64,000 nucleotides of DNA, taken from contig NZ_JBKKAD010000168.1 in the NCBI RefSeq assembly GCF_046714715.1, positions 38,152 through 102,151 on the forward strand. The letters are read 5' to 3'. This DNA is from Conyzicola sp. (GTDB lineage Bacteria; Actinomycetota; Actinomycetes; Actinomycetales; Microbacteriaceae). The position numbers and the translations under genes are program-made. Positions 19,369 through 54,836 of the stretch are shown here, piece after piece (position 1 is the stretch's first letter; the number at the start of each line of letters is the position of its first letter). The notes beneath the pieces are model-generated. The model worked only from the letters and a program-made list of their open reading frames with translations. It was not told the origin of the DNA and did no database searches.

Positions 19369-19376
19369 CGTGACCG

Positions 19377-24053: not shown

Positions 24054-24055
24054 CG

Positions 24056-25192
24056 CTAGCCGGCGTTCTTCAGCGTCATTACGCGTCGCGCCGCGGCATC
24101 CACCAGGTTCGCAAACTCCGGGTCGCTCTGCGCCTTCGCGACGACCGCGTCGATCATCTCGGCGGCGATAGCGGGCGATCGCGACACCAGCACGATGTCG
24201 CAGCCGGCCTCGATTGCGAGCACCGCGCGGTCCGCGGGCGACCACGCCGTCACCTGCGCGGCCCCCGACAGGTCGTCGGTCATGATCACGCCGTCGAACT
24301 CGAGCCCGCCGCGCAGCAGCCCGGTGACGACGGTGGGGGAGAAGACGGCGGGCGCCCCCGAGTCGATCTGCGTGTAGATCGCCGACGACATCATCACCAC
24401 GTTCGCCCCCGACGCGATCTCGCTGCGGTAGATGCCCACGCTGTCGCTCTGCGCGTTCGTGGTCGTGTCGGTGACGCCCGCGGTGTCGTCGGTGTTCGCC
24501 GTGATCGCGCCGAGCCCCGGAAAGTGCTTGATCACGCTCGTGACCCCACCCGCGCTCATGCCGGCGCGAAACGCGTCCGCGTGAGCCACGATGCCCGGGG
24601 CGTCGAACGCGAACTCGCGGTCGTACCCTCCGATGGGCGGGTTGGATGTCGCGGCCTCCCTAGAAGCGATGAGATCCACCACCGGCGCGAGGTTCATGGT
24701 CACCCCGGCCGAGGCCAGTTCGCGGGCCCAGGCGGTGGCGCCAGTCTGCAGGCTGGCCGCATCCATCGCCCCTTGTTCCAGAGCGGACGGCATCTCGCTG
24801 AACCCGGGCCCCCTGAGCACCTGCACCTGGCCACCCTCCTGGTCGGTCGAGACCAGAAGGGGGCGATCCGGCGGAGCGGCGGCGGTGAACTGCGCGACGA
24901 CGGCGGCGGTCGCGGCCGTTCCCGCGCTCGACCGGCCCGACAGGAAGACGCCGCCGACGAACCGGTCGCGTACTGCAGACAGCGTCGCGGCCTCTGCTGC
25001 CGACGCTGTGGTGCCGACCATGAACACCTGGCCGACGCGCTGTTCGAGGGTGAGCCCGGCCAGCGGGTCGGCAGTGGCGGTCGGCGTGGGAGTGGGCGGC
25101 AGGGTGGTCGCGGCGGGCTGCGGCGCGGGCGAAGCGCACCCCATGAGCATCAGCGCCACAGCGGAGAGCACAATCCACGAGCGCGTCTTCAC
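24056..25192 (-). CDS. glycoside hydrolase family 3 lipoprotein (NagZ/LpqI-like beta-N-acetylhexosaminidase)
   Basis: 378 aa; lipobox LMGC; KHFPGLG motif and GH3 N-terminal domain pattern. Confidence 0.8.
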   Translation of the reverse strand: MKTRSWIVLSAVALMLMGCASPAPQPAATTLPPTPTPTATADPLAGLTLEQRVGQVFMVGTTASAAEAATLSAVRDRFVGGVFLSGRSSAGTAATAAVVAQFTAAAPPDRPLLVSTDQEGGQVQVLRGPGFSEMPSALEQGAMDAASLQTGATAWARELASAGVTMNLAPVVDLIASREAATSNPPIGGYDREFAFDAPGIVAHADAFRAGMSAGGVTSVIKHFPGLGAITANTDDTAGVTDTTTNAQSDSVGIYRSEIASGANVVMMSSAIYTQIDSGAPAVFSPTVVTGLLRGGLEFDGVIMTDDLSGAAQVTAWSPADRAVLAIEAGCDIVLVSRSPAIAAEMIDAVVAKAQSDPEFANLVDAAARRVMTLKNAG

Positions 25193-25218: not shown

Positions 25219-25275
25219 GCTGGTTGAGTAGCGCGGTGGAGCTATGGCAATCGCGCCAGCGATTGCGCGACCCCA
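25219..25275. repeat. GAGTAG-element, degenerate left-arm copy
   Basis: ctggttgagtag followed by a different side hairpin (caatcgc-gcca-gcgattg). Confidence 0.4.
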
Positions 25276-27676: not shown

Positions 27677-28650
27677 TGAAAGCGATAGTGCAAGACCGAT
27701 ACGGCGACTCGTCTGTGCTGCACCTCGACGACGTGCCCATGCCGACGATCGGCGACGACGACGTGCTGATCGAGGTGCGCGCCACCTCGCTCAACATCGG
27801 CGACATCCATCTCATGACGGGACTGCCGCTGATCATGCGCCCGTTCGTGGGATTCAAAGGTCCCAGACAAAGAATCAGGAGCATGGATGTCGCGGGGCTG
27901 GTGCACTCCGTCGGCCCTCGTGTCACGGCCTTCAGGCCCGGCGACGAGGTGTTCGGCGTCGTCGACGCCGGTCTCGCCGAGTATGCCCGCGCCTCGGTCA
28001 AGAAGATCGCCCCGAAGCCGGCCTCGCTCTCGTTCGAGCAGGCCTCGGCGATCCCCACGTCCGCGGCCACCGCCCTGCACGCGCTGCGCGACACCGGTCA
28101 CGTGCAGGCCGGGCAGAAGGTGCTGATCATCGGAGCGTCCGGCGGTGTCGGCATCTTCGCAACCCAGCTCGCGAAGGCGTTCGGCACACACGTCACCGGC
28201 GTCGCCAGCACCGCGAAGCTCGACCTGGTGCGCTCGCTCGGCGCCGACGAGGTCATCGACTACACGACGACCGACTTCACCCGGTCGGGGGAGCGCTACG
28301 ACCTGATCGTCGACATGGCGAGCACGCACACGTTCGGCGATCTGCGCGGCGTTTTGGCACCCGACGGCACGCTTGTGATCGTCGGGGGAGAGGCCGGCGG
28401 CCGCTTCACCGGCGGCGTCGGTCGCGCGATGACGGCACCGCTGCGGGCCATCGGCTCAAAGCAGAAGCTGAAGGGCCTGATCTCGCTGACAACCGCCGCC
28501 GACCTCGCCATGCTCACTGAGTTCGTCGAAGCGGGCAAGCTGGCGCCCGTGATCGACGCCGCGCATCCGCTGGCGGATGCATCCGAGGCAATGGCTCACC
28601 TGCAGTCATCGCGCGGGTCAGGCAAGCTCGTGCTCACACCTGCCGGTTGA
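27676..28650 (+). CDS. NAD(P)-dependent alcohol dehydrogenase / quinone oxidoreductase (MDR)
   Basis: 324 aa; IIGASGGVGIFATQLAK Rossmann motif; ATGA overlap with the upstream stop; its stop TGA lies inside a GAGTAG-element. Confidence 0.85.
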   Translation: MKAIVQDRYGDSSVLHLDDVPMPTIGDDDVLIEVRATSLNIGDIHLMTGLPLIMRPFVGFKGPRQRIRSMDVAGLVHSVGPRVTAFRPGDEVFGVVDAGLAEYARASVKKIAPKPASLSFEQASAIPTSAATALHALRDTGHVQAGQKVLIIGASGGVGIFATQLAKAFGTHVTGVASTAKLDLVRSLGADEVIDYTTTDFTRSGERYDLIVDMASTHTFGDLRGVLAPDGTLVIVGGEAGGRFTGGVGRAMTAPLRAIGSKQKLKGLISLTTAADLAMLTEFVEAGKLAPVIDAAHPLADASEAMAHLQSSRGSGKLVLTPAG

Positions 28651-28679
28651 GTAGGTCGCTCCGCGACCGTATCGAAGCC
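28643..28679. repeat. GAGTAG-element, left-half copy
   Basis: ccggttgagtagg-tcgctccgcga-ccgtatcgaagcc; truncated exactly where the low-GC island begins. Confidence 0.8.
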
Positions 28680-28684
28680 TGCTT

Positions 28685-28732
28685 TCGAAAAGCGAGCCGC
28701 CACTATCACTATCCAACATGGCGGCGGCTCGC
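28685..28732 (-). terminator. rho-independent terminator candidate ending the small Cys-rich ORF / helicase transcription unit
   Basis: 10-bp stem gcgagccgcc / ggcggctcgc (21-nt loop) followed on the minus strand by TTTTCGAAA. Confidence 0.5.
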
Positions 28733-28789
28733 CCTCGTGCGTAACTGCGACGTCAGGCAGCTAAGGCTCGACGAGCATTTTGCTCTTTA

Positions 28790-28939
28790 TTAACCCATAG
28801 CGATGCATTGCTTACAGCGGTCGTTTCCGCCGGTACCGGAAACACGATTGCTCGCGGGGATCTGTTGTCCCGTGGGGCAATGTTCGTGATCATGATAGAC
28901 GTCGGGATCCGACGGGTTTGACGAGTGATATGCGCTCAT
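28790..28939 (-). CDS. hypothetical small Cys-rich protein (49 aa)
   Basis: Not in the ORF track; MSAYHSSNPSDPDVYHDHEHCPTGQQIPASNRVSGTGGNDRCKQCIAMG; strong AAGGAG 6 nt upstream of the ATG; C-x20-C-x2-C spacing. Confidence 0.55.
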   Translation of the reverse strand: MSAYHSSNPSDPDVYHDHEHCPTGQQIPASNRVSGTGGNDRCKQCIAMG

Positions 28940-29017
28940 GACGTTCTCCTTTGAAACATCGTGAGGAGCAAGGTGCCCCTACAACGCAACTGTATGTAAC
29001 GGATGCGGCACAGGGGC

Positions 29018-31105
29018 CTACGAAACGCCGACCCACAGCCCGTCACGCGCTCGCGTCATCGCCACATACAGTGCGCGGCGATCAAGTTCTCGACGCTCGC
29101 TCGATGCGTTGTCAGCGGCGGGTGCAGATTCGAGAAGTGAGCGGGGTGTACGTGCCATCAGTACCTGTTTGAACTCGAGCCCCTTCGCCCGGTGAACGGT
29201 TCCGACCTTCACCGCATCAACTGCTTGACCGCTGTAATGCGTCAGCTCAACCGTGGGGATTCCGGCAGCCTGCAGCGCCTTGACCATGTGAGCAGCCTGC
29301 CAATTGGCGAGTGCGAGCACACCCACATCGCCGTAACTCGTGCCCGTCGCCTTGACAGCCAGAACGTGGTCCACAAGCGATTCGTCGTGGAGGGTGGTTG
29401 AAGCGAACCGTGTAATCATTGGGGCGGGGCCGTGCCTCAGGATCTCCTGTGAAGCATCCGCCATGCTTATCGCGCCCTCGATGTCGACGAATTCGTCGCC
29501 GGCGACAAGCGAGGCGGCGAACTCTACGATCTCGAAGGTATTTCTGTAGTTCGTGGTCATGACAACGCCGCGGCCAGCGATCGACACATTCGCCTCGGCA
29601 AGAGTGAAGCCGCCAGGGTAGATCGTCTGTTGGCCGTCGCCGATCAGGTTGAGCCCGTCGGGCTTGTTGCCAACGAGCGAGTGCAACATTCGCACCATCA
29701 TGCACGTGAGATCCTGAGCCTCGTCAATGATGACCGCGCTGTAGCCTTCGAGCGGCTTCGTCCGTAGCGAGGCAGCGGCGTGCAGGATGACATCGGGGAA
29801 GTCGTAGATCTGGGCTGCGATTCGAGCCTTCTCGTAGGCAACGTAGAAGCGCCACACGTGGCGGCGCTGCTCGACAGTCAGCCGTCGACGTCGCCCGGAA
29901 CGCGCCAGAGCGGAGTACTGATCGATGGTCCGGATGCCACGGCCTTTGATCACTGCATTGATCTCGTCGAGCCAGTAATCGGCTGAAGGGTCGAGCACCT
30001 CAAGGTCGGCGCCATAACGGGACCAAGTGGCGTCGAAGAGGCTCTCAGCCTCTTCATGTTGAAGATTGACGTGCACGCCTCGCTGTTTGAGTACGTCGAG
30101 GGCGAACGAATAGACGCCGTGAAACTCGACGCGGTCACTCACATCGGGAGCGAGCCGCGCGAGTAGCGATTCGAGCACCGCAGGGAGGGTTCGGACGAAC
30201 GCCGTAACGAGTACCTTGCCCTGATTCGATCGCGCCAAATAGGCCGCGCGATGCAAACCGACGACGGTCTTTCCCGTCCCGGCAGCGCCGCGAATCCGCG
30301 AAGGACCGGAAAAGGTCCGATTCACGAGCTTCGCCTGCGTCGGGTGCAGGAACGCCATCCAATCTTCGATCGGAAGCGCCATCACTCCCTCGACGAGTGC
30401 GCTCTCGATCTCGGCGGCCGTCAATCTGTTCACATAGACGGCTTCAGGCAAAAGGTCCGGTAGGTCTTCGGGCAGAACGGGTTCGACGAACGACAGATCC
30501 AGCTCCAGTGAATTGTCGGTCTCATAGATGGGAAAAAGCTCGTCTAAGGCCTCGACGACGTTCGCCAACTGAGCGGTGGAGAGTCGCGCGCCCGCTCGCG
30601 AGATGCGCGTCACCACCTCAGCTTCGGAGAGGAGGGTGACCCCGTAGAGGTCCGTGCTCTTGAAGTTCCGCTTGTCAGTGAAAACCGCCAGCGCGTGAAC
30701 TTCGCCGGGCGCTAGCCCGATGTCCGCGAGAATTGTGCGGGTGGAGTCGGCTAGGTCAGCGATGTTGGCGAAGTCATCCGTGACATCCGCCTGATCCCGA
30801 AAGACGGCCCCGCCGGCGACAGTCACGTCGCGCCACGCTTTGGCGTCGACGATGAAGACTCCGCCCGGACCAGCGACGATGAAGTCGACCTGCGCGCGAC
30901 GGCTTTTCGGCCACCGACGGTCGGCCAACACCGTGTAGCCGCGGCTCTCGAGCACTTCGAGTGTGTGCGCTAGGCGCCGCTCGCTGTGTGCGGCCGCAGC
31001 AAAGCGTCGTTCCATTTCCTTTGCGGCGGTCGCGAGGCGTTCGAGTTCTCCGGCCAGCAAGCCCTGGCGGTGCGACTCGAGTGCGGCGGAATCACCTGCG
31101 GGCAT
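29018..31105 (-). CDS. NERD nuclease domain - UvrD/REP-type SF1 helicase fusion protein
   Basis: 695 aa; NERD-type PD-(D/E)xK motif QVDFIVAGPGGVFIVDAKAW; helicase Walker A GAAGTGKT, motif II VIIDEAQDL, motif VI VGTVHRAKGLEFKQV. Confidence 0.85.
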   Translation of the reverse strand: MPAGDSAALESHRQGLLAGELERLATAAKEMERRFAAAAHSERRLAHTLEVLESRGYTVLADRRWPKSRRAQVDFIVAGPGGVFIVDAKAWRDVTVAGGAVFRDQADVTDDFANIADLADSTRTILADIGLAPGEVHALAVFTDKRNFKSTDLYGVTLLSEAEVVTRISRAGARLSTAQLANVVEALDELFPIYETDNSLELDLSFVEPVLPEDLPDLLPEAVYVNRLTAAEIESALVEGVMALPIEDWMAFLHPTQAKLVNRTFSGPSRIRGAAGTGKTVVGLHRAAYLARSNQGKVLVTAFVRTLPAVLESLLARLAPDVSDRVEFHGVYSFALDVLKQRGVHVNLQHEEAESLFDATWSRYGADLEVLDPSADYWLDEINAVIKGRGIRTIDQYSALARSGRRRRLTVEQRRHVWRFYVAYEKARIAAQIYDFPDVILHAAASLRTKPLEGYSAVIIDEAQDLTCMMVRMLHSLVGNKPDGLNLIGDGQQTIYPGGFTLAEANVSIAGRGVVMTTNYRNTFEIVEFAASLVAGDEFVDIEGAISMADASQEILRHGPAPMITRFASTTLHDESLVDHVLAVKATGTSYGDVGVLALANWQAAHMVKALQAAGIPTVELTHYSGQAVDAVKVGTVHRAKGLEFKQVLMARTPRSLLESAPAADNASSERRELDRRALYVAMTRARDGLWVGVS

Positions 31106-31251
31106 TCGCGGATCCTGTCGTCGTGACGCTCACGGCCGAGCGTCCGTCTCATCCTGCACTAGCTGAGCCTCCCTCGACAGAGGCCAGTTGTGGGGGTAGC
31201 TGACTCCCGTCAGAATTCAATAATGCTGAGATTTACTAGTAGTTTGAACGC

Positions 31252-32973
31252 ATGTTGTCTTGGGGAGTTAGTGATTTCAAATCGCTCGTGTCAGCTCGAT
31301 TGAAACTCGACGGGCGACGGTTAAGCGTTGTGAGCGGTACCAACAGCTCCGGAAAATCGTCACTTTTGCAATCACTATTGCTCCTATCGCAGTCAAGTGC
31401 CGGAGGAGGCGAGCTTGCGCTCAACGGTCGACTGGTGCGTCTGGGTGCGCCTGATGACGTGGTGCGTAACGGTCAAAAGAGTCTCGAGCTCGCCTTCGAA
31501 TTCTCTCCGGTCGAAGGTAGATCGCAAGGACAGACCGCTCCTGAAATGAAAGTGCAGTTTTCCCTTGCCCCAAACGGACCTAGGCTCACCGTCGTTGATG
31601 TCGAGATTTTGGACCTAGCCGACGCAACAGTTGTTTTCGAGGCGACGGTGACTCGGCTGAACCGGGCAGACGTAAAGGCGCTATCTGACCTGCTCAGGGA
31701 CGATTCACTAACGGTGCTCCGAATATCTACGGAGAACCAACGACGCGCTGCAAACAGGATGTATTTGGTTCTGCGAGGTTTGATGCCGGTGGGAATCGCA
31801 CTGATCAGATCGGCCTCGTGGATAGAAAAAACCTATAACGGCTACGTCGAGGACTCGAGCTTCAAGAGCCCCAACGTTCAGGAGAACCCAAACCGGCTAC
31901 GTTCCTTTGTGACGAATGAACTCAGTTTGCTGGTGAACAAACGGGAGTTCATGGCCTCGCACCCCGAAATCGAACCGATTGAAGATCAGTCGCCGATGTA
32001 TCGAACTCGGTGGTCACTTCAAGAGTGGCGATCAATGGAAGCGAATGTCCGCCAAGAGCTGGTGGATTTGGCTATTCGTCAGCGTTCTCGGAACCCCTGG
32101 GTGGTCATTTCGACCAATGGCGCTCGTTTCGACGGGCGGAATCCCACGCGCTATCAAGGGCTCGTAGAGAACGTGGTGGCAAGCGAACACGAGCTAGCTC
32201 TACACCTACTCGCGACAGTGGGGGAGGAAATTGAGAACACGGCGGACGATATCGCATACCTCGGGCCGCTGAGGGACGAACCGAGGGTTGTCCATAGCGC
32301 TTGGGACGAGCGAATGGAATCTTTGCCTGTTGGTATTCGTGGCGAGTTGACTGCCGAAGTGCTAACCCGGCTAAAAGATCATCGGGTGACGTATGGCGAT
32401 TGGGATGGTAAAACCCGAACAGAGAGGCTACCGGAAGCGGTCAGTCGCTGGTGCGAGTACTTGGGCATTGGAGACCACATTGAGGTGATCGATCACGGGA
32501 AACTGGGACGCGGCGTTCGACTTAGAGTTGAGGGCGTTCATCGAGACCTTACGACGATTGGCGTGGGTGCAAGCCAGCTGCTTCCGGTCTTAGTCGCGGC
32601 ATTGGCTATCGACGAGAATTCAATACTTTTGATTGAGCAGCCCGAACTTCACCTGCATCCCGCGGTCCAGTCCCGCCTGGCAGACTTCTTCTTGTTCGCC
32701 CGCCCTGACGTTCGACTCATAGTAGAGACCCATAGTGAGTATCTCGTGACTCGCCTGCGTCGTCGTGTTGCTGAGGGCCGTACGCCTAGCGACGGCATAG
32801 CGGTCATATTCGTGGAGCAGGAGAACGGAGCGTCGACTCTCCGCACCCTTTCGATCGATCAATTCGGGGACATGTCGGAATGGCCCACGGGGTTCTTTGA
32901 CGCGCAGGATTCTGACTCGCTCGCGATTATGAAAGCTGTAGCTAGGACGATGCAAGCCGGGCTCGATTCGTGA
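31252..32973 (+). CDS. ABC-type (AAA_15/AAA_21-like) ATPase with DUF3696-like C-terminal tail
   Basis: 573 aa; N-terminus DFKSL..VVSGTNSSGKSS (Walker A), GVGASQLLPV signature-like, ILLIEQPELHLHP (Walker B/D-loop), VETHS (H-loop), terminal WPTGFFD; no TOPRIM region. Confidence 0.85.
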   Translation: MLSWGVSDFKSLVSARLKLDGRRLSVVSGTNSSGKSSLLQSLLLLSQSSAGGGELALNGRLVRLGAPDDVVRNGQKSLELAFEFSPVEGRSQGQTAPEMKVQFSLAPNGPRLTVVDVEILDLADATVVFEATVTRLNRADVKALSDLLRDDSLTVLRISTENQRRAANRMYLVLRGLMPVGIALIRSASWIEKTYNGYVEDSSFKSPNVQENPNRLRSFVTNELSLLVNKREFMASHPEIEPIEDQSPMYRTRWSLQEWRSMEANVRQELVDLAIRQRSRNPWVVISTNGARFDGRNPTRYQGLVENVVASEHELALHLLATVGEEIENTADDIAYLGPLRDEPRVVHSAWDERMESLPVGIRGELTAEVLTRLKDHRVTYGDWDGKTRTERLPEAVSRWCEYLGIGDHIEVIDHGKLGRGVRLRVEGVHRDLTTIGVGASQLLPVLVAALAIDENSILLIEQPELHLHPAVQSRLADFFLFARPDVRLIVETHSEYLVTRLRRRVAEGRTPSDGIAVIFVEQENGASTLRTLSIDQFGDMSEWPTGFFDAQDSDSLAIMKAVARTMQAGLDS

Positions 32974-33842
32974 GGACGATCGTCTTTGACCCTGGTCTGG
33001 CGCTTTCAACTTTCAGCTCTCCAGTGGAACAAAGTCGTTTCTGGGTTCGTTTTGTCGAATGGGAGCGCGATGAACGCGTCGCAATGGGCAGTGAAACGCA
33101 TGGAGCAGTGAGTCACTTCTACGCGACGCGAGTATGCAGCAGCGGCAGTAGCGTGCCGGCAGGCATGTCCAAAGGGGTGCATCGAGCAATGAAGGCTCTG
33201 CTGAGCCGGCCCCCGCTCAAGAACGCTGATTCGTTTAGAGAGCGAACACTGGACGTAAAGTACCTTGGCAAGGACGCTAACGCCACTATTCTCGCGATTG
33301 ACATCGGGGCCATGCAGCATGCATCCGAGTTGCACCTCGCGATCGCCGCCGAATGCTGGCCTGCTGGTGTAACGGTTGGGCGCGTACTACCCGCTCCGCC
33401 GGAGCGGGTCTTCTTCCAAACGGTGCCGAACTCACCAACTGAATCGGAAAGGTGGGAAGCTCGCGCAGACGCGCTACAAGACTTCAAACTTCTTGTCGTC
33501 GGCGGCCAACCAGACAGGTCTGTTGCGGAATCACTACTTGCGAAACTGAATGTCGACAGATCTCGACTTGTATGGGTCCCCTGTGAGAAGTCCAAACCTC
33601 CGCGAAATCTGGATGCGCAAATCAAAGGTACCCGGGACTCACAAACGATTGTGATTTGCATCACCGGGAAGATGGGGCATTCGACGTCTAACAAAGTTCG
33701 GGAGAACTGCACGAAGGTGGGGATCCCGCTTGTCAACGTGGAGTCTGCGGGTGAGATATTGCCGAAACTTGGAAAGTACGCCGATGCGTTGGTCGCCGCC
33801 GCTCGTCTGGCTCTGAGCACCGGTGCTGACGTGGGAGCCTAG
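32970..33842 (+). CDS. hypothetical protein with DUF2325-like C-terminal domain
   Basis: 290 aa; GTG overlaps the ATPase stop (GTGA); C-terminus LLVVGGQPD..(about 45 aa)..TIVICITGKMGHSTSNKVRENCTKVGIPLVNVES fits the DUF2325 pattern as I recall it; N-terminal 170 aa unrecognised. Confidence 0.6.
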   Translation: MRTIVFDPGLALSTFSSPVEQSRFWVRFVEWERDERVAMGSETHGAVSHFYATRVCSSGSSVPAGMSKGVHRAMKALLSRPPLKNADSFRERTLDVKYLGKDANATILAIDIGAMQHASELHLAIAAECWPAGVTVGRVLPAPPERVFFQTVPNSPTESERWEARADALQDFKLLVVGGQPDRSVAESLLAKLNVDRSRLVWVPCEKSKPPRNLDAQIKGTRDSQTIVICITGKMGHSTSNKVRENCTKVGIPLVNVESAGEILPKLGKYADALVAAARLALSTGADVGA

Positions 33843-33929
33843 AACCACAGCCCCCACATAGAAACCGCATAGCCGCCCCTGTCTAACTAGTCACACCTCG
33901 TTCACCGACTAGTAACCCAGGAGCGCACC

Positions 33930-34547
33930 ATGGTTTCCGCCGTAATGATCGCCATCGATCTGTTCGCCATCTCGATCATGACGTTCGGCATGTATTTCCC
34001 GCGTCACCGGCGCCGCGATCTCGTGGTCGCATTCCTCGGCGTCAACGTGGGCGTGCTCGCCGTGGCGACCGTGCTGGGCTCTTCGGAGGTCGGCGTCGGC
34101 CTGGGGCTCGGCCTCTTCGGCGTCTTGTCGATCATCCGGCTGCGGTCGTCTGAGATCTCGCAGACCGAGGTCGCCTACTACTTCGCGTCCCTCGCGCTCG
34201 GCCTGATGGCCGGACTCAGCACGACTATCAACCCGCTCGTAATCGCCCTGATGGCGCTCATCGTGCTGGTGCTGTTCGTCGGCGACAACCCGCGCCTGTT
34301 CAAGCAGTACCGCCAGCAGACGGTGCAGCTCGACACGGCCTACGCCGACGAGACCAAACTGCGGCTCGAACTCGAGCGCATGCTCGGCGCCCGCGTTCAG
34401 AAGGTCACCGTGCAGCACCTCGACCTCGTGAACGACACGACCCTGGTCGACGTGCGCTACCAGGCCATCAGCAAGCCGCCCACCCAGGCGCGGTTCCTGG
34501 CAGCGGATGACGCCGAGCAGCGCGACCTCGTAGGGAGCACCCGATGA
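33930..34547 (+). CDS. DUF4956 domain membrane protein
   Basis: 205 aa; FGMYFPRHRRRDLVVAFLGVNVGV..GLFGVLSIIRLRS pattern; AGGAG RBS. Confidence 0.75.
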   Translation: MVSAVMIAIDLFAISIMTFGMYFPRHRRRDLVVAFLGVNVGVLAVATVLGSSEVGVGLGLGLFGVLSIIRLRSSEISQTEVAYYFASLALGLMAGLSTTINPLVIALMALIVLVLFVGDNPRLFKQYRQQTVQLDTAYADETKLRLELERMLGARVQKVTVQHLDLVNDTTLVDVRYQAISKPPTQARFLAADDAEQRDLVGSTR

Positions 34548-35287
34548 ACCACCTCGACACCATCTCGCTCGACGAGCTGATCGCCGCCGCCGCGCTGCAG
34601 ACCCGGGTCGACCGCAAGTACATCCTTCGGGCGCACGAGGCGGATGCCGTGCTCGAAAAATTGGATGCGACGACGCGCGTTCTCGAGATCGACGGGCAGC
34701 GGGCATCCAACTATGAGTCCGTCTACTTCGACACCCCCGGACTGCTGAGCTACCGCATGGCAGCCACCGGACGCCGCCGGCGCTTCAAGCTACGCACGCG
34801 CAGCTACGTCGACACCGCCGAGTCGTACCTCGAGATGAAGACGCGCGGCGCCCGCGGCACGACGATAAAAGACCGCCTGCCCTACCTGATGCGCGACCGC
34901 GACGCCCTCACACCCGACGGGCGCGAATATGCGGATGCGGCCCTCGATGGCATCGGAATCGACCACCCGGAGCAACTCGACCTCGTGCCCACCCTGGTCA
35001 CCCGCTACCGCCGAGCGACTCTGTATGTGCCGAACTCGCAGAGCCGCGCGACCGTCGACACCGACCTCAGTTGGGAGACCAACGACGGCGCAGTTCTGCG
35101 GCTGCCGCGCTCGGTGATCATCGAGACCAAGTCTGGTCAGCGCACCAGCGACGTCGACCGACTCCTCTGGTCGCACGGACACCGCCCGGCCACGATCTCC
35201 AAATTCGGAACCGGCTTAGCCGCCATGCGGCACGATCTTCCCTCCAACAAATGGGCGCGCGTACTGCGCCACCACTTCGACGCTTAG
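34544..35287 (+). CDS. VTC domain (polyphosphate polymerase-like) protein
   Basis: 247 aa; RVDRKYIL.., YESVYFDTPGLLSY, RRRFKLRTRSY, EMKTRG motifs; 4-nt overlap with the upstream gene. Confidence 0.75.
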   Translation: MNHLDTISLDELIAAAALQTRVDRKYILRAHEADAVLEKLDATTRVLEIDGQRASNYESVYFDTPGLLSYRMAATGRRRRFKLRTRSYVDTAESYLEMKTRGARGTTIKDRLPYLMRDRDALTPDGREYADAALDGIGIDHPEQLDLVPTLVTRYRRATLYVPNSQSRATVDTDLSWETNDGAVLRLPRSVIIETKSGQRTSDVDRLLWSHGHRPATISKFGTGLAAMRHDLPSNKWARVLRHHFDA

Positions 35288-35297
35288 GACCCACATC

Positions 35298-37058
35298 ATG
35301 CGCAAAAAGTTCGCCCTCCCAATGACCCTCACCTCCCTGCTGCTCGGCGCCGTGATCCTCACGGCCTGTGCGACAACGACAACAGAGGCCACCGACGCAG
35401 CCGCATCGAGCAGCTCGGCCATCGCCGACGTCGACGCGACGCTCACCGCCGAGGCGGTGCTCGCCGCGAACGAAGACGCCACCACGACGAACGACGACGA
35501 GTGGTCGATGGACGACGCCGTCGAGATCACGCTCGACGGAGACACCGCGACATCCGATTCTGAGAACGTCACCATCGACGGATCGACCGTCACCATCGAC
35601 GGATCGACCGTCACCATCACGGCGGCCGGCACCTACGTGCTCAGCGGCACGCTCGACGACGGGCAGATCGTGGTCGACTCCGTCGACGAGGGGGTCGTCG
35701 CGCTCGTACTCGACGGCGCCGACATCTCCTCCACAACGGAATCGGCGATCACGTTCACCACGGCGACCAACGCGGTCGTCTCGCTCGCCGACGGCAGCGA
35801 GAACACGCTGAGCGACACGTCCGCGTACGCCGACACGGCCGAGGCCAACGCCGCGCTGTACGCCGACACCGATCTCACCATCACCGGCACCGGAAGCCTC
35901 ACCGTGAACGGAAACGGCAACGACGGCATCACCTCGACCGACGATCTAGTCGTGCTGTCGGGCACGATCGCGGTGGACGCGGTCGACGACGGCCTGCGCG
36001 GCAAAGACTCGCTCACCGTCGAGGACGGCGACATCACGGTCACCGTCGGCGGCGACGGACTCAAGAGCGACAACGACGAAGACCTGACCCGCGGCTACAT
36101 CGACATCCAGGGCGGCACACTCGACGTGACGGCCGCCGGCGACGGCGTCGACGCCGAGACCGACCTCGTGATCACCGGCGGCTCCGTCACGGTCGCGGCC
36201 GGCGGAGGCGCGAGCAAGCAGGTAACCGACACCTCGTCCAAGGGTCTTAAGGGCGGCACCTACGTGATCGTCGAGGGCGGCACGATCGACGTCGACTCCT
36301 CCGACGACGCGGTGCACTCGAACGGTGCGATCCACCTGGGCGGCGACGCCGAGGTCACCCTCGCCAGCGGCGACGACGGCGTTCACGCCGACACCGCGCT
36401 GCTCATCGACGGCGGCACGGTCGCGGTCACCGAATCCTACGAGGGGCTCGAGAGCGCCACCATCACCGTCGCGGAAGGCACGGTCGACGTGACGGCGAGC
36501 GACGACGGCATCAACGCGTCGGCCGGCACGACGACCGAGACCACGGGCGGCGGCATGGGCGGCGAGACCGGCGGCACCGAGATGGTCTCCATCACCGGCG
36601 GCGACACGACCATCCACGCCGACGGCGACGGGTTCGACTCGAACGGATCCGCCGAGATCAGCGGCGGCACCCTCACCGTCTACGGGCCGACGAACGACGG
36701 CAACGGCGCGCTCGACGTCAACGGAACCCTCGAGGTGAGCGGCGGCACGGTGCTCGCTGCCGGCAGCTCGGGCATGGTCGTCTCCCCGAGCGATGACTCC
36801 GCGCAGGGCTTCCTCGCCGCGACGGCCAGCGGCGAGGCCGGCTCCGAGGTCGAGATCCGAGACGCGGATGGCACGGTGGTCACGTCGTTCACTTCTGAGA
36901 AGCAATTCGCGTCGGTCGTCTACTCGGGTAGCAAACTCGTGGCCGATGCCGAGTACAGGGTCTACGTCGACGGCTCCGAGGCGGGCACGGCGACCGAGGG
37001 CGTGGCGGCCGCCGGCGGAATGGGCGGTGGCGGAATGGGCGGCGGCGAACGGCCGTGA
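35298..37058 (+). CDS. secreted lipoprotein, Cthe_2159-like carbohydrate-binding beta-helix repeat protein
   Basis: 586 aa; lipobox LTAC; many repeats of ..G(T/S)(L/V)T(V/I)..GDG(I/L/F)(D/K/T)S..; Gly/Met-rich tail. Confidence 0.7.
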   Translation: MRKKFALPMTLTSLLLGAVILTACATTTTEATDAAASSSSAIADVDATLTAEAVLAANEDATTTNDDEWSMDDAVEITLDGDTATSDSENVTIDGSTVTIDGSTVTITAAGTYVLSGTLDDGQIVVDSVDEGVVALVLDGADISSTTESAITFTTATNAVVSLADGSENTLSDTSAYADTAEANAALYADTDLTITGTGSLTVNGNGNDGITSTDDLVVLSGTIAVDAVDDGLRGKDSLTVEDGDITVTVGGDGLKSDNDEDLTRGYIDIQGGTLDVTAAGDGVDAETDLVITGGSVTVAAGGGASKQVTDTSSKGLKGGTYVIVEGGTIDVDSSDDAVHSNGAIHLGGDAEVTLASGDDGVHADTALLIDGGTVAVTESYEGLESATITVAEGTVDVTASDDGINASAGTTTETTGGGMGGETGGTEMVSITGGDTTIHADGDGFDSNGSAEISGGTLTVYGPTNDGNGALDVNGTLEVSGGTVLAAGSSGMVVSPSDDSAQGFLAATASGEAGSEVEIRDADGTVVTSFTSEKQFASVVYSGSKLVADAEYRVYVDGSEAGTATEGVAAAGGMGGGGMGGGERP

Positions 37059-37068
37059 CGCTAGCGTG

Positions 37069-37184
37069 CTGGTTGAGTAGGTCGCCCAGCGACCGTATCG
37101 AAACCCCGCCGAGGTTTCGATACGGGCCGTAGACGGCCCTACTCAACCAGCGGGTACCCGCCGCAGACGGCCCTACTCGACCGG
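37069..37184. repeat. GAGTAG-element, full copy plus an extra right terminal arm
   Basis: ctggttgagtagg-tcgcccagcga-ccgtatcgaaacc-ccgccga-ggtttcgatacgg-gccgtagacggc-cctactcaaccag, then ..cagacggccctactcgaccgg. Confidence 0.9.
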
Positions 37185-37276
37185 CTGTTTCGGTACGGTG
37201 ATGTCGAGAACACCGGCCCGGCTCCGACTCCTGTGTGAGACGCCCGCCCCGGGCATCCGAAAACGAGGAGTGAACG

Positions 37277-37646: not shown

Positions 37647-38864
37647 GTGACAGACGAGCGCGTCGTCGTCGGCCTGCTGCGCGAACTCGCGCCGCAGGTC
37701 GTCGGCGTGCTCGCCCGCCGCTACGGCGACTGGTCGGCCGCCGAAGACGCCACCCAGGAGGCGCTGCTCGCCGCCTCGACCGCATGGAGCACTGACGGGA
37801 TTCCGGATCATCCGCGGTCCTGGCTCATCACGGTCGCCTCGCGCCGGGTCATCGACTCGCTGCGCAGCGACATCGCCCGCCGCGAGCGCGAATACAGTGT
37901 CGCCGCGCTCGAGGTTGCGACGGCCGTGCCCGGCGACGACGACTCTCTCACCCTGCTCTACCTGTGCTGCCACCCGGCGCTCTCGCAGCCGTCGCAGCTC
38001 GCGCTCACCCTGCGCGCCGTGGGCGGGCTGACGACGGCCGAGATCGCGCGCGCGTTTCTCGTGCCCGAATCGACCGTCGCGCAGCGCATCAGCCGGGCGA
38101 AGCAGCAGATCCGCGCGGCCGGGCTGCGCTTCGAGCCGCCTCCCGCACACGACCTTGACGCGCGGCTCGCCGTCGTGCTGCAGGTGCTCTACCTGATCTT
38201 CAACGAGGGCTACACGCCAGGTTCGCGGTCGGTCGCCGCGGGCGCGGACCTGACGGACGAGGCGATCCGCATAGCCCGGATGCTGCGGGCCAGCCTCCCG
38301 GCGGACGGCGAGGTAGCAGGGCTGCTCGCCCTGATGCTGCTCACCGACGCCCGCCGGGCAGCCCGCGAACTGCCCGACGGCATGCTCGTTCCGCTCGCCG
38401 AACAGGACCGCAGGCTCTGGAACGCCGCGCTCATCGCCGAGGGCACCGCGCTGCTGACCGCCACCCTCGGCTCAGTCGCGGTCGGGCCGTACCAGCTGCA
38501 GGCGGCGATCGCCGCGCTGCACGACGAGGCCGCGACCCCGGATGACACGGACTGGCCGCAGATCCTCGCGCTGTACACCGTGCTCGAGCGCATCGCGCCG
38601 GGACCGGTGGTCACGCTCAACCGCGCCGTCGCGGTCGCGATGGTCGACGGGCCGCTCGCCGGACTCGCCCTGCTCGGAACGATCGCGGGGGAGGCGGGGC
38701 TGGCGCACACGCACCGGTTCGACGTGGTGCGCGGGCACCTGCTCGAGCTCGCCGGGGATGCCGTCGGCGCGGTGGAGGCGTACGGCACCGCGATGCGCGG
38801 AACGGTCAGCGTGGCCGAACGCCGCTACCTGGCGCTGAAGGTCGCGCGGCTCGCTGCCGGTTGA
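37647..38864 (+). CDS. RNA polymerase sigma factor (ECF-like, long C-terminal TPR-like extension; YciI-associated type)
   Basis: 405 aa; region 2 EDATQEALLAA..HPRSWLITVASRRVIDSLR, region 4 TTAEIARAFLVPESTVAQRISRAKQQI; stop TGA inside a GAGTAG-element. Confidence 0.8.
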   Translation: MTDERVVVGLLRELAPQVVGVLARRYGDWSAAEDATQEALLAASTAWSTDGIPDHPRSWLITVASRRVIDSLRSDIARREREYSVAALEVATAVPGDDDSLTLLYLCCHPALSQPSQLALTLRAVGGLTTAEIARAFLVPESTVAQRISRAKQQIRAAGLRFEPPPAHDLDARLAVVLQVLYLIFNEGYTPGSRSVAAGADLTDEAIRIARMLRASLPADGEVAGLLALMLLTDARRAARELPDGMLVPLAEQDRRLWNAALIAEGTALLTATLGSVAVGPYQLQAAIAALHDEAATPDDTDWPQILALYTVLERIAPGPVVTLNRAVAVAMVDGPLAGLALLGTIAGEAGLAHTHRFDVVRGHLLELAGDAVGAVEAYGTAMRGTVSVAERRYLALKVARLAAG

Positions 38865-38938
38865 GTAGCGCCCTCTAGGGCGCGTATCGAAACCCTCGCG
38901 AGGTTTCGATACGGTCGCTGAGCGACCTACTCAACCAG
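38857..38938. repeat. GAGTAG-element, full copy
   Basis: ccggttgagtag-cgccctctagggcg-cgtatcgaaacc-ctcgcga-ggtttcgatacgg-tcgctgagcga-cctactcaaccag; supplies the stop codons of both convergent flanking genes. Confidence 0.9.
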
Positions 38939-39739
38939 CAGCGTCGCCCGCTCGCGCTCGGCCTTCTCCAGCGCCCGCGCGGCTGTCGTGCGCTTGCGCT
39001 CGGCCGCCTCGAACGCCCGTGCCGCATCGGCGAGTTCGCCCTCCACGTCGGCGAGGTGCTCGCGCAGTTCCTCGCGCTCGAGCGTCAGCGACTCCTTCGC
39101 GCTGCCCGCCTGACGCGCCGTGCGCTCGGCGTCGGCGGCGGCCGCCCGTGCGGTGGCGACCGCAGCATCCGCGGCCTCGACCTTCTTCTTCGACGGCGCC
39201 TTCTTCACGGGGGTCTTCGCCTTCCCGCGCGCCCGGGCGTGTGGCAGCGGACCGGCCACCGCGTCGTCGAGGTCGACGGCTTCGAGGCCGTCGCCCGAGA
39301 GCGCCCGCACCAGCCGTCCGGATGTCACGGCCGCGGCAGCGGCAGCATCCGACATGCCGGCCTGCAGGGTCCGTTCGACATCGATGATGGCCGCCGCATT
39401 CACCGGATGCCCCGCGTCGGCGGCGAGGGAACCCGCCTGCTTCGCGAGTGCCGCGACCAGGGCCCGCCGCTGCGAGCCGAGCTTCGTGAGCGTCGCGCGA
39501 TCGAAGCCGTCTTGCGCGTTCCGCAGTGAGTCACCGAGCGCGAACAGCTGAGCGACGTCGTCGGGCCGCTCCCGCGCGAGCAGGTTGACGGCCCACGCGG
39601 CCGCCGACGGTCTCGGCAGCGACTTGACCTCGGTGCCGAGGGTGCCGCCCTCGCTCTTCGCGCGCGCGTTGCGGGCGGCGGTGAACTCCGTCGGCAGCAG
39701 GGCGTAGAGCTCGGTCGCGACGGCGGCGAGTTCGGTCAT
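38927..39739 (-). CDS. hypothetical protein with C-terminal coiled-coil
   Basis: 270 aa; protein-like composition; no motif recognised; ends LLVE* within the repeat. Confidence 0.55.
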   Translation of the reverse strand: MTELAAVATELYALLPTEFTAARNARAKSEGGTLGTEVKSLPRPSAAAWAVNLLARERPDDVAQLFALGDSLRNAQDGFDRATLTKLGSQRRALVAALAKQAGSLAADAGHPVNAAAIIDVERTLQAGMSDAAAAAAVTSGRLVRALSGDGLEAVDLDDAVAGPLPHARARGKAKTPVKKAPSKKKVEAADAAVATARAAAADAERTARQAGSAKESLTLEREELREHLADVEGELADAARAFEAAERKRTTAARALEKAERERATLLVE

Positions 39740-41312: not shown

Positions 41313-41627
41313 ATGACGTTGAACAAACGCGAGCGCGCCGCCACGAGCGAAGAACAGCGGGCCAACCTCGAGCTGGCGGGCCTCAGCGAGGCCGACCTGC
41401 AGCGCACCCTGGGAATGGACGACGAGCGGGTGTCAGCCGCGCTCGACGTCACCGACTCCGATCCGATCGACGTCTGGCTCGTGCGCGACTACCTCGAGCG
41501 CACCGTGCTCGAGCGCGGGCGTAAACCGCGCCCGTACTCGGTGCTCACGCCGGCGGCGCGGGCGTCTGCCGAAAGATGGTTCGCGCTGTACGACCTCGAC
41601 GAGGTGCTGAAGGACAGCGCGGGCTAG
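41313..41627 (+). CDS. DUF2316 family protein
   Basis: Internal ATG (MTLNKRERAATSEEQRANLELAGLSEADLQR..VWLVRDYLE..PRPYSVL) matches my recollection of the DUF2316 pattern. Confidence 0.6.
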   Translation: MTLNKRERAATSEEQRANLELAGLSEADLQRTLGMDDERVSAALDVTDSDPIDVWLVRDYLERTVLERGRKPRPYSVLTPAARASAERWFALYDLDEVLKDSAG

Positions 41628-41698
41628 GTTTCGACAGGCTCAACCCGCAGGGTTTCGACAGGCTCAACCCGCGGGGTTTCGACAGGCTCAACCCGCGG
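41627..41698. repeat. 3 x 24-bp tandem repeat (condensed GAGTAG-element right arm)
   Basis: ggtttcgacaggctcaacccgc[a/g]g three times; spans from the stop of the plus gene to the stop of the convergent minus gene. Confidence 0.9.
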
Positions 41699-42470
41699 GC
41701 GCCCGCAAAAACTCGAGCGCGGCGTCGCGGAACGCCCGCGAGGTGGGCGCGTTGAAGTGGTTGCGGCCGGGGATCTCGAAGAACTCGCCTTCCGCCGCCA
41801 TGGCCAGTGCGCGCGACTTCGGCAGGATTCCGTCTTCGCTTCCGGTGGCGAACAGCGTCGGCTGGTCGGGCGCGTTATCGGCGCTCGGCTGCGGGCCGCC
41901 GCGCATGCCCTCGACGAGGGCGACGAGGGCGGTCAGGTCGTTGCCCTCGATGCCGCTCGCCATCTGCAGATACGCGCCGGTGAGCCGGTCCTCCACGACG
42001 TGGCCGCGTTCGATGTGCGCGCGGGCCGCATCGACCTGGAAGCGCGTGAGCGGGTCGCCGTCGGGGATGCCCCCGAGCACCGCCTTCGTGATGCGCTCGG
42101 GCAGCTCGCGCGCCGCCTCCCAGCCGACCCGTGCGCCGAGCGAGTAGCCGACATACGCCACCTCGTCGAGCATGAACGTGTCGAGCACGGCCAGCACGTC
42201 GTCGACGAGCGCGGCCATCGTGTACGCGTCGGGGGAGTGCGGCTTGTCGCTCGCGCCGTGACCGCGCTGGTCGATCGCGATCACGTGGAAGTCCGCACGC
42301 AGCAGGTCGCGGATCCACCCGGTGGAATGCCAGTTCAGCAGCGCGCTCGACGCGAAACCGTGCACTGCGAAGACGGTGGGCGCATCCGGGTCGCCGAATT
42401 CGTAGGTGGCGATGTTGGTGACGTCCGGGGAAAGCACGGAGCGGGCTGGCGGGATCTCAGGCGTTAGCAC
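41688..42470 (-). CDS. alpha/beta hydrolase
   Basis: 260 aa; HGFASS.., nucleophile elbow GYSLGA. Confidence 0.85.
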   Translation of the reverse strand: MLTPEIPPARSVLSPDVTNIATYEFGDPDAPTVFAVHGFASSALLNWHSTGWIRDLLRADFHVIAIDQRGHGASDKPHSPDAYTMAALVDDVLAVLDTFMLDEVAYVGYSLGARVGWEAARELPERITKAVLGGIPDGDPLTRFQVDAARAHIERGHVVEDRLTGAYLQMASGIEGNDLTALVALVEGMRGGPQPSADNAPDQPTLFATGSEDGILPKSRALAMAAEGEFFEIPGRNHFNAPTSRAFRDAALEFLRAPAG

Positions 42471-47491: not shown

Positions 47492-47499
47492 CGCCTTCG

Positions 47500-47536
47500 C
47501 CGGTTGAGTAGGTCGCTCCGCGACCGTATCGAAACC
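47500..47536. repeat. GAGTAG-element, left-half copy
   Basis: ccggttgagtagg-tcgctccgcga-ccgtatcgaaacc. Confidence 0.85.
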
Positions 47537-47547
47537 CGCCCAGCTGG

Positions 47548-47646
47548 TTCTCGTAACTCAGGCAGGATGCGCGGGGTGAGCCGCCCTGGCCCCGCCGTCG
47601 TGTGGCTCGAGCCGCGGCATCCGCGATTCTGCCTGAGTTGCGAAGA
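47548..47646. repeat. 99-bp TIR element, copy 1 (imperfect arms)
   Basis: ttctcgtaactcaggcagga ...59 nt... ttctgcctgagttgcgaaga; internal sequence nearly identical to copy 2. Confidence 0.8.
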
Positions 47647-47762
47647 GGAGTGTTCGTGATTCCGGATGATCCGGGGTTGCTGTCGTGCTCGGGGGCGTGA
47701 TCGCGCGGCTGTACAGCGCGCGGAAGAGCAGTCCTCCTGAATGACGAACGCCGGACAGCCGG

Positions 47763-47861
47763 TTCTCGCAACTCAGGCAGAACGTGCGCGGGGTGCCGTC
47801 GTGGCCCCGCCGTCGTGCGGCTCGAGCCGCGGCATCCGCGATTCTGCCTGAGTTGCGAGAA
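47763..47861. repeat. 99-bp TIR element, copy 2 (perfect 20-bp terminal inverted repeats)
   Basis: ttctcgcaactcaggcagaa ...59 nt... ttctgcctgagttgcgagaa (exact reverse complement). Confidence 0.85.
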
Positions 47862-48485
47862 TCAGCGGCGCCGGATCTCCGACTCGACGATCGTCGTCAC
47901 TACCTCGACGATGTGCGGCGACGCGGGGGCCGACCCGAAGCCGAACCGCACGGGCGGGTGCAGGCGTGCCAGAGCGCCGAGGTCGTCGCCGTCCCACGTG
48001 GCGGTGACAGCGGTGATGGCCCGCGCGGACGTGACGCCGTAGTACTCGCGCCGCCCCTGACCCGCCGACCCTGCCGTGCGAGCGCCGGGCACGAGCACGC
48101 GCGCCACCGGGTCGATGAGCCGCAGCCAGCCGGGACGCGTGGCGATGCCGCGCGGCACGATCCGCAACAGCCGGCCGAGGGGCGAGATCGTGCCCACCGT
48201 GAACCGCGCGTTCAGCGGCCCGGCCGCGACGGTGATCTCGCGGCCGGTGCGCGTGTAGGCGACGGGCACGATGCGCACCTCGTCGAACACGTAGGTGGCG
48301 CCGACGAACTCGGCGACGGCCTCGCTCGGCGCGAGCAGGATGCGGTGACCGTCGGGCCGCTCGACCATCACGTCGGCGAAGCTGCCCAGCGGGGATCGCG
48401 GCCACATGCCGACGACGAGGCGAACGCCCGAGCCGGTGCCGAAACCGGCGATGCGGCCGTGGAAGCGCAGGACGGTTCGGGGCAT
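47862..48485 (-). CDS. hypothetical protein
   Basis: Start chosen at MPRTVLRFHG; protein-like composition; no motif recognised. Confidence 0.5.
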   Translation of the reverse strand: MPRTVLRFHGRIAGFGTGSGVRLVVGMWPRSPLGSFADVMVERPDGHRILLAPSEAVAEFVGATYVFDEVRIVPVAYTRTGREITVAAGPLNARFTVGTISPLGRLLRIVPRGIATRPGWLRLIDPVARVLVPGARTAGSAGQGRREYYGVTSARAITAVTATWDGDDLGALARLHPPVRFGFGSAPASPHIVEVVTTIVESEIRRR

Positions 48486-50145: not shown

Positions 50146-50152
50146 AAAAACG

Positions 50153-50234
50153 CCGGTCGAGTAGGTCGCCCCGCGACCGTATCGAGACCCTCGGAGGGTT
50201 TCGATACGGGCCGCAGGCGGCCCTACTCAACCGG
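50153..50234. repeat. GAGTAG-element, full copy
   Basis: ccggtcgagtagg-tcgccccgcga-ccgtatcgagacc-ctcggag-ggtttcgatacgg-gccgcaggcggc-cctactcaaccgg. Confidence 0.9.
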
Positions 50235-50247
50235 CGTATCTGTCTGC

Positions 50248-54776: not shown

Positions 54777-54836
54777 ACCACGGCGCCCTGTGGATGATTC
54801 GCTTGGGGACCCGCTTCAGAAAGTGAGAATAGCCGG

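Follow-up and report, generated by a model that had tools for sequence, protein, structure and literature searches.

A dispersed hairpin repeat of Conyzicola as the probable cognate repeat of a small GIY-YIG nuclease

An earlier note, made from the letters alone, had drawn attention to a dense family of nested-palindrome elements of about 82 bp in a 64,000-nt stretch of the genome of Conyzicola sp. (Microbacteriaceae; contig NZ_JBKKAD010000168.1, positions 38,152 to 102,151; hereafter the window). We find that the basic unit of this family is a hairpin module of ~45-50 nt and not an 82-bp element. The elements are dispersed single, tandem and head-to-head copies of this module, which probably serves as cognate repeat for a small nuclease of the Ssn kind with a single GIY-YIG domain. 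The 82-bp element has the same arrangement as the gene unit, with a 7-8-nt loop in the place of the gene, and we therefore regard it as the gene-less derivative of that unit.

Association with a small GIY-YIG gene

The repeat and the GIY-YIG gene are tightly associated, with repeat copies on both sides of the gene. In the partner search, open reading frames (ORFs) enclosed by two modules lying 300-1700 nt apart were listed and then scanned for protein domains. Two of these module-bracketed ORFs encode small GIY-YIG proteins, with about 0.16 expected by chance. One of them (locus L033, positions 58-360; PF01541, E = 3e-16) has modules within about 50 nt of each end, and the other is a frameshifted homologue in L008, the module-richest Microbacteriaceae locus (Homoserinibacter). 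We analysed 80 genome loci at which a relative of the L033 protein is encoded; they belong to Nocardioides, Arthrobacter, Agromyces, Microbacterium, Flexivirga and a few Bacteroidota and gave 240 covariance model matches (E < 0.01) in 254 kb, nearly all of them at most 500 nt from the gene. The matches lie on the plus strand upstream and on the minus strand downstream of the gene, so that their tails face it, and at E < 1e-5 this two-sided arrangement is seen at 26 of the 80 loci. For a generalised core (N4-GAG..CGA-N4'), the density is 8.5 per kb near the gene, 1.0 per kb in the remainder of these loci and 0.48 per kb in the controls; this core adjoins the gene at 79/80 loci and is two-sided at 65/80.

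An independent scan of metagenome contigs, using an alignment of 20 proteins, yielded 223 matches in 147 kb. The best 150 of these 223 matches fall into 47 loci, 24 of which are two-sided. Metagenome contigs of 46-55% G+C carry modules of the form GGTCGAGTAG..CGTATCGAGACC with T-rich loops, as found in Chloroflexota genomes. Dispersed modules and a module-flanked gene occur within the same metagenome-assembled genome (MAG) in JAEZVO01 (L029, L038, L040, L090 and L246) and in JBFWWZ01 (L033 and L244). Loci missed by the model have variants in which the core is kept and the outer stem covaries, namely CGTTGAG..ACGAAACG in Microbacterium, GGTCGAGCTTGTCGAGACC in Arthrobacter and GGCTGAGCGTAGTCGAAGCC in Cellulophaga, and the variant GGCTGAGCGAAGTCGAAGCC adjoins a homologue on a Sphingomonas plasmid.

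In the 15 relatives that were examined, 90-108 aa precede the stop codon. Their alignment shows invariant Y, G, R, H, E and W positions, and a second domain is absent. The nearest solved structures are the UPF0213 proteins 1ZG2 (E = 3e-14) and 1YWL; NCBIfam contains no family for this protein.

Sequence and fold of the module

Comparison of the window copies gave a unit of ~35 nt, YGGTT-GAGTAG-(GC hairpin)-CGTATCGAAACC, and the consensus of an alignment of 107 different copies (A1) reads CGNT-GGTT-GAGTAG-hairpin-CGTATCGAAACC. The elements that had been described as full consist of two such units in head-to-head orientation, their CGTATCGAAACC tails being turned toward each other across the 7-8-nt loop, and the supposed halves are single modules. 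The nested inverted repeats reported in the earlier note are readily seen when the copies are read.

On one DNA strand, CGNY-GGTY pairs with RACC-RNCG to form an outer helix (P1), in addition to the variable hairpin (P2). With this structure written on A1, 83.5% of the cells are paired; for shuffles the figure is 71%, and sliding of the partner lowers it to 33-44% (P2). Double changes number 230 versus 100 in shuffles, and the hairpin pairs vary freely on both sides. The variants of P1 are compensatory: GGTT occurs with GAAACC in 179 cases, GGTC with GAGACC in 20 (versus 6 mismatched) and GGCT with GAAGCC in 4, and for GGTC-GAGACC against GGTT-GAAACC (179/20/6/0) Fisher's test gives p = 8e-23. 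In the covariation test that had been proposed for the fold, P1 and P2 both covary; the variation of the side hairpins under maintained pairing, first seen between window copies, recurs over the 107 copies as strong pair covariation. Where copies stand alone in Chloroflexota, Treponema and viral contigs, their outer helix reaches 8-14 bp with covarying pairs.

Within the conserved core, GAG faces CGA. The simplest reading of the core would be a GGUU/AACC helix, two G·A pairs of the sheared type (each in Y-GA-R context), one G-C pair and UA/UA with two bulged bases, followed by the variable hairpin. C-GNA-G loops and tandem G·A pairs in Y-GA-R context are unusually stable in DNA. Several variable hairpins (L037, L062, L019, L067, L081 and L104) are imperfect palindromes, GCGAGC..GCGAGC or GCGAG-GAA-CGAGC, which would pair with a second tandem G·A (CGAG/CGAG), a non-canonical motif as in the conserved core.

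The predicted folds of the dimers have z-scores of -7 to -9.5, the cloverleaf at 37069 reaching -9.5 as DNA. The four-way junction postulated earlier for the elements is the minimum-energy prediction for the dimers at 37069 and 38857, whereas those at 19288 and 50153 are predicted as extended hairpins. The G-U wobbles that had been taken as a hint of selection on an RNA fold turned out to be something else: at 50153 and 19288 they represent the compensatory P1 change within one module, by which pairing within the module is kept while pairing between the modules is broken.

Repeat copies in the window

In the window (G+C 67%), the inner-arm motif CCGTATCGAAACC has 15 matches with at most 2 mismatches versus 1.4 expected, and the outer-arm motif CYGGTYGAGTAGG, at the same tolerance, 28 versus 5.6 expected; 0/100 shuffles reach 15 and 28, respectively. 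A covariance model (R1), built on 107 copies from other genomes and none from the window, detected 12 complete modules, each with E <= 2e-9, of which eight are paired head to head as four dimers (Table 1). Of the three mini copies at 41619-41701, R1 also picks up two (E about 1e-4). What ranks next in the window is noise (E = 0.21), leaving a clean gap below the modules and minis. The repeats sit where the earlier note had placed them, and its count of at least ten copies becomes 12 complete modules plus mini and truncated ones. From its list of variant or tandem forms, 23951-24053 (two truncated and one complete module) and 41627-41698 (three minis) hold, whereas 25219-25275 has a 5' arm only and is not detected by R1. 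The mini form reads GGTTGAGCCTGTCGAAACC on the minus strand at 41627-41698 and is also present in the Treponema locus L078 as well as beside GIY-YIG genes of Arthrobacter, Amnibacterium and Cellulophaga.

Table 1. Copies of the repeat family in the window (bits and E values refer to model R1)
Feature	Position	Strand or modules	Remarks
Complete module with truncated 5' copy	9352-9417	-	module 9352-9401, 56.1 bits, E = 5.9e-14
Truncated 5' copy CTGGGTGAGTAGGGCCGTCTG	about 9396-9417	-	precedes the complete module 9352-9401 on the minus strand; read from sequence
Head-to-head dimer	19282-19374	19282-19332(+), 19325-19374(-)	40.5 and 47.3 bits
Tandem cluster, repeat family D7	23949-24061	+	truncated 23949-23981, truncated 23982-24014, complete 24011-24061 (58.2 bits)
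Possible remnant: 5' arm CTGGTTGAGTAGC, then unrelated palindrome	25219-25275	+	pattern match with 1 mismatch; no R1 match, not a complete module
Single module, tail variant CGAAGCC	28637-28687	+	40.9 bits, E = 1.5e-9
Head-to-head dimer with truncated copy and degenerate tail (locus flagged in the earlier note)	37063-37198	37063-37113(+), 37105-37156(-)	55.4 and 53.9 bits
Truncated copy, head and hairpin without tail (same locus)	37152-37184	-	degenerate tail 37186-37198 follows
Head-to-head dimer	38851-38944	38851-38902(+), 38894-38944(-)	53.5 and 53.3 bits
Three tandem mini modules without variable hairpin, GGTTGAG-CCTG-TCGAAACC	41619-41701	-	25.5 and 24.0 bits; core scan
Single module	47494-47544	+	after HpcH/HpaI aldolase gene; 54.7 bits
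Head-to-head dimer between convergent genes	50147-50240	50147-50197(+), 50189-50240(-)	46.9 and 49.7 bits

Every copy in the window is found at a gene end, in line with the earlier observation of copies at gene 3' ends. By an approximate count, made by eye on simple GC3 gene calls, about 7 of some 12 convergent junctions carry the family, compared to two or three co-directional junctions and no divergent one. The flanking genes are ordinary chromosomal ones (Clp ATPase, dehydrogenases, ECF sigma factor, MFS transporter and others); for example, the dimer at 19282-19374 fills the gap between convergent Clp ATPase and SDR genes. In four cases the repeat overlaps the coding end, the stop codon (TGA or TAG) lying inside the GGTTGAGTAG head at 23960-23962, 28648-28650, 38862-38864 and 38927-38929. 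The upstream VTT/DedA gene (end 23962) stops with the TAG of the first truncated copy at 23949, which, like the second one in this cluster, consists of head and hairpin without the tail. The zinc-dehydrogenase gene (end 28650) stops with the TGA within GGTTGA of the 28637 module, and the dimer at 38851-38944 supplies the stop codons of both convergent genes, the ECF sigma factor gene and a 270-aa ORF (ends 38864 and 38927). Supply of stop codons was considered as a role of the repeat and rejected: over 193 modules in other genomes, such stops are no commoner than for random stop codons.

The covarying GGTC/GAGACC pair of P1 sits in the right-hand module of the dimer at 19282-19374 and in the left module of that at 50147-50240. 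With regard to the hairpins, the dimers at 19288, 37069 and 50153 combine the same two types (A+B), and the fourth dimer combines a third type with the first. Three dimers with the same two hairpin types indicate that the dimer itself has been copied as a unit.

Occurrence in other genomes

An exact-pattern scan of one genome per species returned at least 119 stretches. Among the matches listed are many genera of the Microbacteriaceae, Propionibacteriaceae, Nanopelagicales, many Chloroflexota (Anaerolineae, Caldilineaceae and Dehalococcoidia) and four Treponema genomes. About 120 matches would be expected in uniform random sequence of the size of the collection. The matches are nevertheless not due to chance, because GGTT is found upstream in 160-181 of 182 copies although it was absent from the search pattern, a conserved CG lies further upstream, the gap in the pattern nearly always forms a hairpin, and many loci have several copies. 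Module-anchored loci gave 217 model matches in 710 kb, whereas 80 control loci from other, mostly actinobacterial, genomes (716 kb) gave none. The module is also present in 16 stretches of viral contigs. In other taxa single modules are the commonest form, and dimers across the loci are head to head in 25 cases and tail to tail in 4. A BLAST search of the element against plasmid and phage collections returned no match, and full-text literature searches with the motif strings, or with REP (repetitive extragenic palindrome) in combination with these taxa, gave nothing relevant.

As to how copies come and go, the window genome has no close relatives in which insertion polymorphism could be followed. 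Among syntenic pairs of loci, orthologous junctions in related genera are occupied by different family members or arrangements, with no clean empty sites, which shows turnover rather than a clean insertion event; the difference between L222 and L224 is an 815-nt block and not a clean indel. With regard to replication, the GC skew of the window is flat, and the matches on any one chromosome are too few for a comparison of orientation. The only public contigs with the exact proteins of the window, L200 and L217 (Logan, run SRR31159429), are 1.8-2.4 kb long and end at repeats, and the short-read assembly breaks in this organism are attributed to the repeat family.

Some loci have long module arrays with a period of 43-60 nt, tandem or alternating (L069:1050-2100, L053:4100-4240, L257 and L387), and some of these adjoin a GIY-YIG gene. 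The module tail resembles a crRNA handle; CRISPR repeats of types I-C and I-E were discarded, the array spacers being only 12-14 nt long and alike, with no cas genes. In the Treponema MAG locus L078, two modules (3573-3607 and 6711-6745) lie in a prophage-like region between portal and large terminase genes, by a HicB-like gene; they have extended conserved flanks and an adjacent mini module.

Comparison with Ssn systems and proposed mechanism

SsnA of Neisseria meningitidis, a GIY-YIG protein of 94 aa with a single domain, has flanking NTS hairpin repeats, whose copies number in the hundreds. Binding and cutting of NTS by SsnA require single-stranded DNA (ssDNA) and are limited to one strand, the cut being upstream of the motif (Chenal et al., Nat Commun 2025, PMC11893778). 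Its homologues number in the thousands, each with its own Ssn-related motifs (SRM) (PMC11893778). The system described here shares with them a single-domain GIY-YIG protein of about 90-100 aa, a gene bracketed by inverted hairpin repeats of 20-50 nt, the dispersal of the same repeats in many intergenic copies (12 modules in the window), directional repeats with conserved non-palindromic flanks, and a distribution that spans phyla. On the other hand, the module, GGTTGAGTAG-hairpin-CGTATCGAAACC, and NTS/SRM, CGTCATTCCCGCG..GCGGGAATCYRG, are unrelated in sequence, and the hosts (Actinomycetota, Chloroflexota, Treponema and Bacteroidota) are none of those named in the main text of PMC11893778. Another difference to the published systems is that the nearest solved structures here are UPF0213 proteins.

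Some observations weigh against the assignment to an Ssn-kind nuclease. The published SRM consensus, HGTCWYN(0-2)YYVSBRHN(0-5)WNVSBRGN(0-2)RNCYNB, has no match in the window and two in 254 kb of GIY-YIG loci; the module is a motif class other than the published SRM. Judged by the nearest solved structures, the protein may belong to a sister clade and not to cd10448, the CDD family that defines Ssn. No GIY-YIG gene lies within the window, and one elsewhere in its genome is presumed. The Treponema and named Chloroflexota genomes carry modules, but the nuclease gene was not retrieved from them and is seen only on metagenome contigs of matching composition.

By analogy with SsnA and NTS (PMC11893778), we propose that the nuclease, encoded between two inverted modules with their tails toward the gene, would recognise the folded module only as ssDNA and only on one strand, and would cut nearby. 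The repeats might thereby mark chromosomal DNA for cleavage when it is single-stranded, e.g. in incoming DNA or at replication. At gene ends, which are permissive sites, the copies would have become numerous, and their hairpins may in addition function there as terminators. Cleavage, strand choice, spread and a terminator role are inferences.

If correct, the assignment accounts for the dense, hitherto unassigned repeat family of Microbacteriaceae and other high-GC Gram-positives and for the breaks of short-read assemblies at its sites. The Ssn-type partnership, which the 2025 description covers mainly in Pseudomonadati, would then also exist, with a quite different motif, in Actinomycetota, in Chloroflexota-like organisms and probably in Treponema. 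A well-defined motif whose covariation rules are clear is a candidate new specificity for Ssn enzymes, which are under development for site-specific cutting of ssDNA. A more far-reaching proposal, which we advance tentatively and hold to be possible rather than probable as a whole, is that module and nuclease form a distinct cross-phylum nuclease-repeat class. Its core would be a short helix closed by tandem G·A (YGAG..YCGAR, with covarying outer stem) outside the published SRM consensus, its GIY-YIG clade would perhaps be closer to UPF0213 than to cd10448, and in Actinomycetota, for which a lack of RAYTs (REP-associated tyrosine transposases) is reported, it would occupy the niche of REP/REPIN elements; it would also add a new ssDNA specificity to the Ssn toolbox.

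Alternative explanations

The location of the repeats raises the question if they are primarily selected as structured RNA in 3' untranslated regions, e.g. as bidirectional terminator, mRNA stabiliser, protein-binding motif or ribozyme. The copies lie at gene ends, mostly between convergent genes, their predicted folds are very stable (z = -7 to -9.5), conserved unpaired bases accompany the covarying stems, and relatives of the Clp gene have ordinary hairpin-plus-T-tract terminators at the corresponding place. Across genomes, 37 single modules were found at convergent and 11 at divergent junctions. Between co-directional genes, however, 44 are in sense and 31 in antisense orientation (10:8 if only genomes with less than 58% G+C, whose ORF calls are reliable, are counted), and the modules thus have no bias of orientation relative to transcription. 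Nor is there an excess of G·U: 162 distinct hairpins contain 690 Watson-Crick pairs, 3 G·T and 7 A·C. The loops, on the other hand, are strand-asymmetric, 46/132 being C-GNA-G triloops on the GAGTAG strand. Loop asymmetry, together with the lack of a transcription bias and of a G·U excess, implies that one strand matters, though not as a transcript, and points to a module acting as ssDNA rather than RNA. Like Rho-independent terminators, the GC-rich hairpins directly follow stop codons and are often common to convergent genes; unlike them, they are not followed by a T-tract, their unpaired core is conserved across phyla, and they form tandem arrays and surround one specific gene, which an RNA function leaves unexplained. 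Rfam gave no match in the window or in 10 loci at the gathering threshold, and only chance-level matches of the miRNA-hairpin type under permissive conditions (E <= 10); the earlier note, which had thought of a REP/MITE-like element or a protein-binding site, had likewise not recognised a named family. We therefore consider a primary RNA function very unlikely, while a secondary terminator effect of hairpins at gene ends may exist. Hammerhead, sarcin-ricin and kink-turn motifs were also compared, by eye; the conserved bases misfit each consensus, and no Rfam match was obtained. A promoter (TTGAGT-17-TATCGA) was dismissed for its poor -10 element.

Other candidates concern the mobility of the repeat. 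Many GIY-YIG enzymes are homing endonucleases, and the gene could be a selfish homing-type gene that entered the loop of pre-existing dimers, the repeats being its target and spread or maintained by something else. The gene occupies the exact position of the 7-8-nt loop, and one MAG has two gene copies (L228 and L244). However, each variant of the protein comes with a flanking motif variant of its own (in Microbacterium, Arthrobacter, Cellulophaga and Sphingomonas), which points to co-evolution of enzyme and repeat. Moreover, the protein lacks an extra DNA-binding domain, and published relatives act on ssDNA at their repeats (PMC11893778). The nuclease would recognise the module under this model as well; the model as such we judge to be unlikely. 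A GTAG next to a hairpin is a hallmark of REPs, as in the GTAG repeats of Di Nocera et al. 2013 (PMC3733652), and a RAYT was looked for on this account, the earlier note having suggested a RAYT-like transposase as partner. A classical REP/REPIN family mobilised in trans by a RAYT would agree with GTAG directly 5' of a GC hairpin, with dense copies outside genes and with the preference for head-to-head dimers (25 versus 4), which matches the GTAG repeats of PMC3733652. We searched 1.78 Mb of loci plus the window with an HUH-motif regular expression and with phmmer, the queries being E. coli RayT and IS608 TnpA sequences. A single Y1-transposase-like ORF came up (Y1_Tnp, E = 0.0035). It lies in L009, about 180 nt away from a dimer, and has flanking hairpins of its own that differ from the module; no modules were present within 2 kb of its relatives of 82-84% identity. 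Actinobacteridae are reported to have only IS200-type Y1 genes (PMC6006769), and the GIY-YIG association accounts for the data. A RAYT was hence not linked to the repeats, the linked partner being the small GIY-YIG nuclease, and mobilisation by a RAYT appears highly improbable. All-against-all clustering of the neighbouring proteins gave generic families only, e.g. ABC transporters and regulators. Even less credible is a transposable element of the miniature inverted-repeat type (MITE) that stems from a DDE-type insertion sequence, its terminal inverted repeats being the outer 13-nt arms. The presence of such repeats, the small size and the high copy number would fit, but single modules are the commonest form in other taxa, the four window dimers have no target-site duplications, no transposase recurs near the copies, and the arms pair within a module according to the covariation.

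The L009 ORF deserves mention in its own right. This RAYT-like gene of an Anaerolineae MAG (4660-5300; HUH 'THLHLV', 'YIHHNPV') is accompanied by inverted hairpins CAAYGC-TCT-GCGTTG and constitutes a separate REP/RAYT pair in a genome that also holds modules of the GIY-YIG type.

With the module read as cognate repeat of the nuclease, it still has several features of REPs: its palindrome is imperfect, GTAG lies 0-2 nt 5' of the hairpin, the copies are extragenic and numerous, and inverted dimers occur. As in REP, BIME and REPIN families, GTAG immediately precedes a GC hairpin, and singles, head-to-head dimers and clusters occur. The flanking of a single-copy nuclease gene by inverted copies recalls REP/RAYT systems, and the gene-less dimer behaves as a replicating unit like a REPIN, the A+B dimer being present three times in the window. 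In contrast to REP/RAYT, the linked gene encodes a GIY-YIG nuclease and not an HUH/Y1 transposase, and in contrast to REPs, the GTAG of the module lies inside a larger conserved helix, not at the end of the element, and the module has a conserved 3' tail of 12 nt. Accordingly, one cannot conclude from a REP-like repeat with a GTAG tag that a RAYT is present. The subterminal hairpins of IS200/IS605 elements and of PATEs, their MITE derivatives, are likewise imperfect hairpins recognised strand-specifically as ssDNA by a small nuclease, which for the module would hold by analogy. Unlike in IS200/IS605, there is no TnpA or TnpB nearby and no asymmetry of left and right ends, and the enzyme fold is different.

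Integron attC sites have the inverse core RYYYAAC at the 5' end and the core GTTRRRY at the 3' end. In the module this order is reversed (GTTGAGT at the 5' end, ACTCAAC at the 3' end) and the copies are not in cassette arrays, so that attC was rejected.

Other features of the window

Directly after the module at 47500, we found a second repeat family with two copies of ~100 nt (47545-47648 and 47758-47866) that are 87% alike; they have terminal inverted repeats of 18-25 nt (TCTCGYAACTCAGGCAGRA / TTCTGCCTGAGTTGCGAGA) around a middle of 57-59 nt and gave no Rfam match at the gathering threshold. A 61-nt direct repeat (54724-54784 and 55761-55821, 89% alike) contains the inverted repeats TTGCGCC..GGCGCAA and TGGGGC..GCCCCA and may be another small palindromic element. 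From about 28000 to 36000 the G+C content is 0.61-0.64, compared to 0.66-0.70 elsewhere in the window; this stretch, which includes a NERD-UvrD helicase gene (29018-31105), may be an acquired island. Finally, a 300-nt direct repeat (57598-57897 and 61325-61624, 76% alike) lies inside the neighbouring genes 57577-59010 and 61124-62740, which are probably paralogues.

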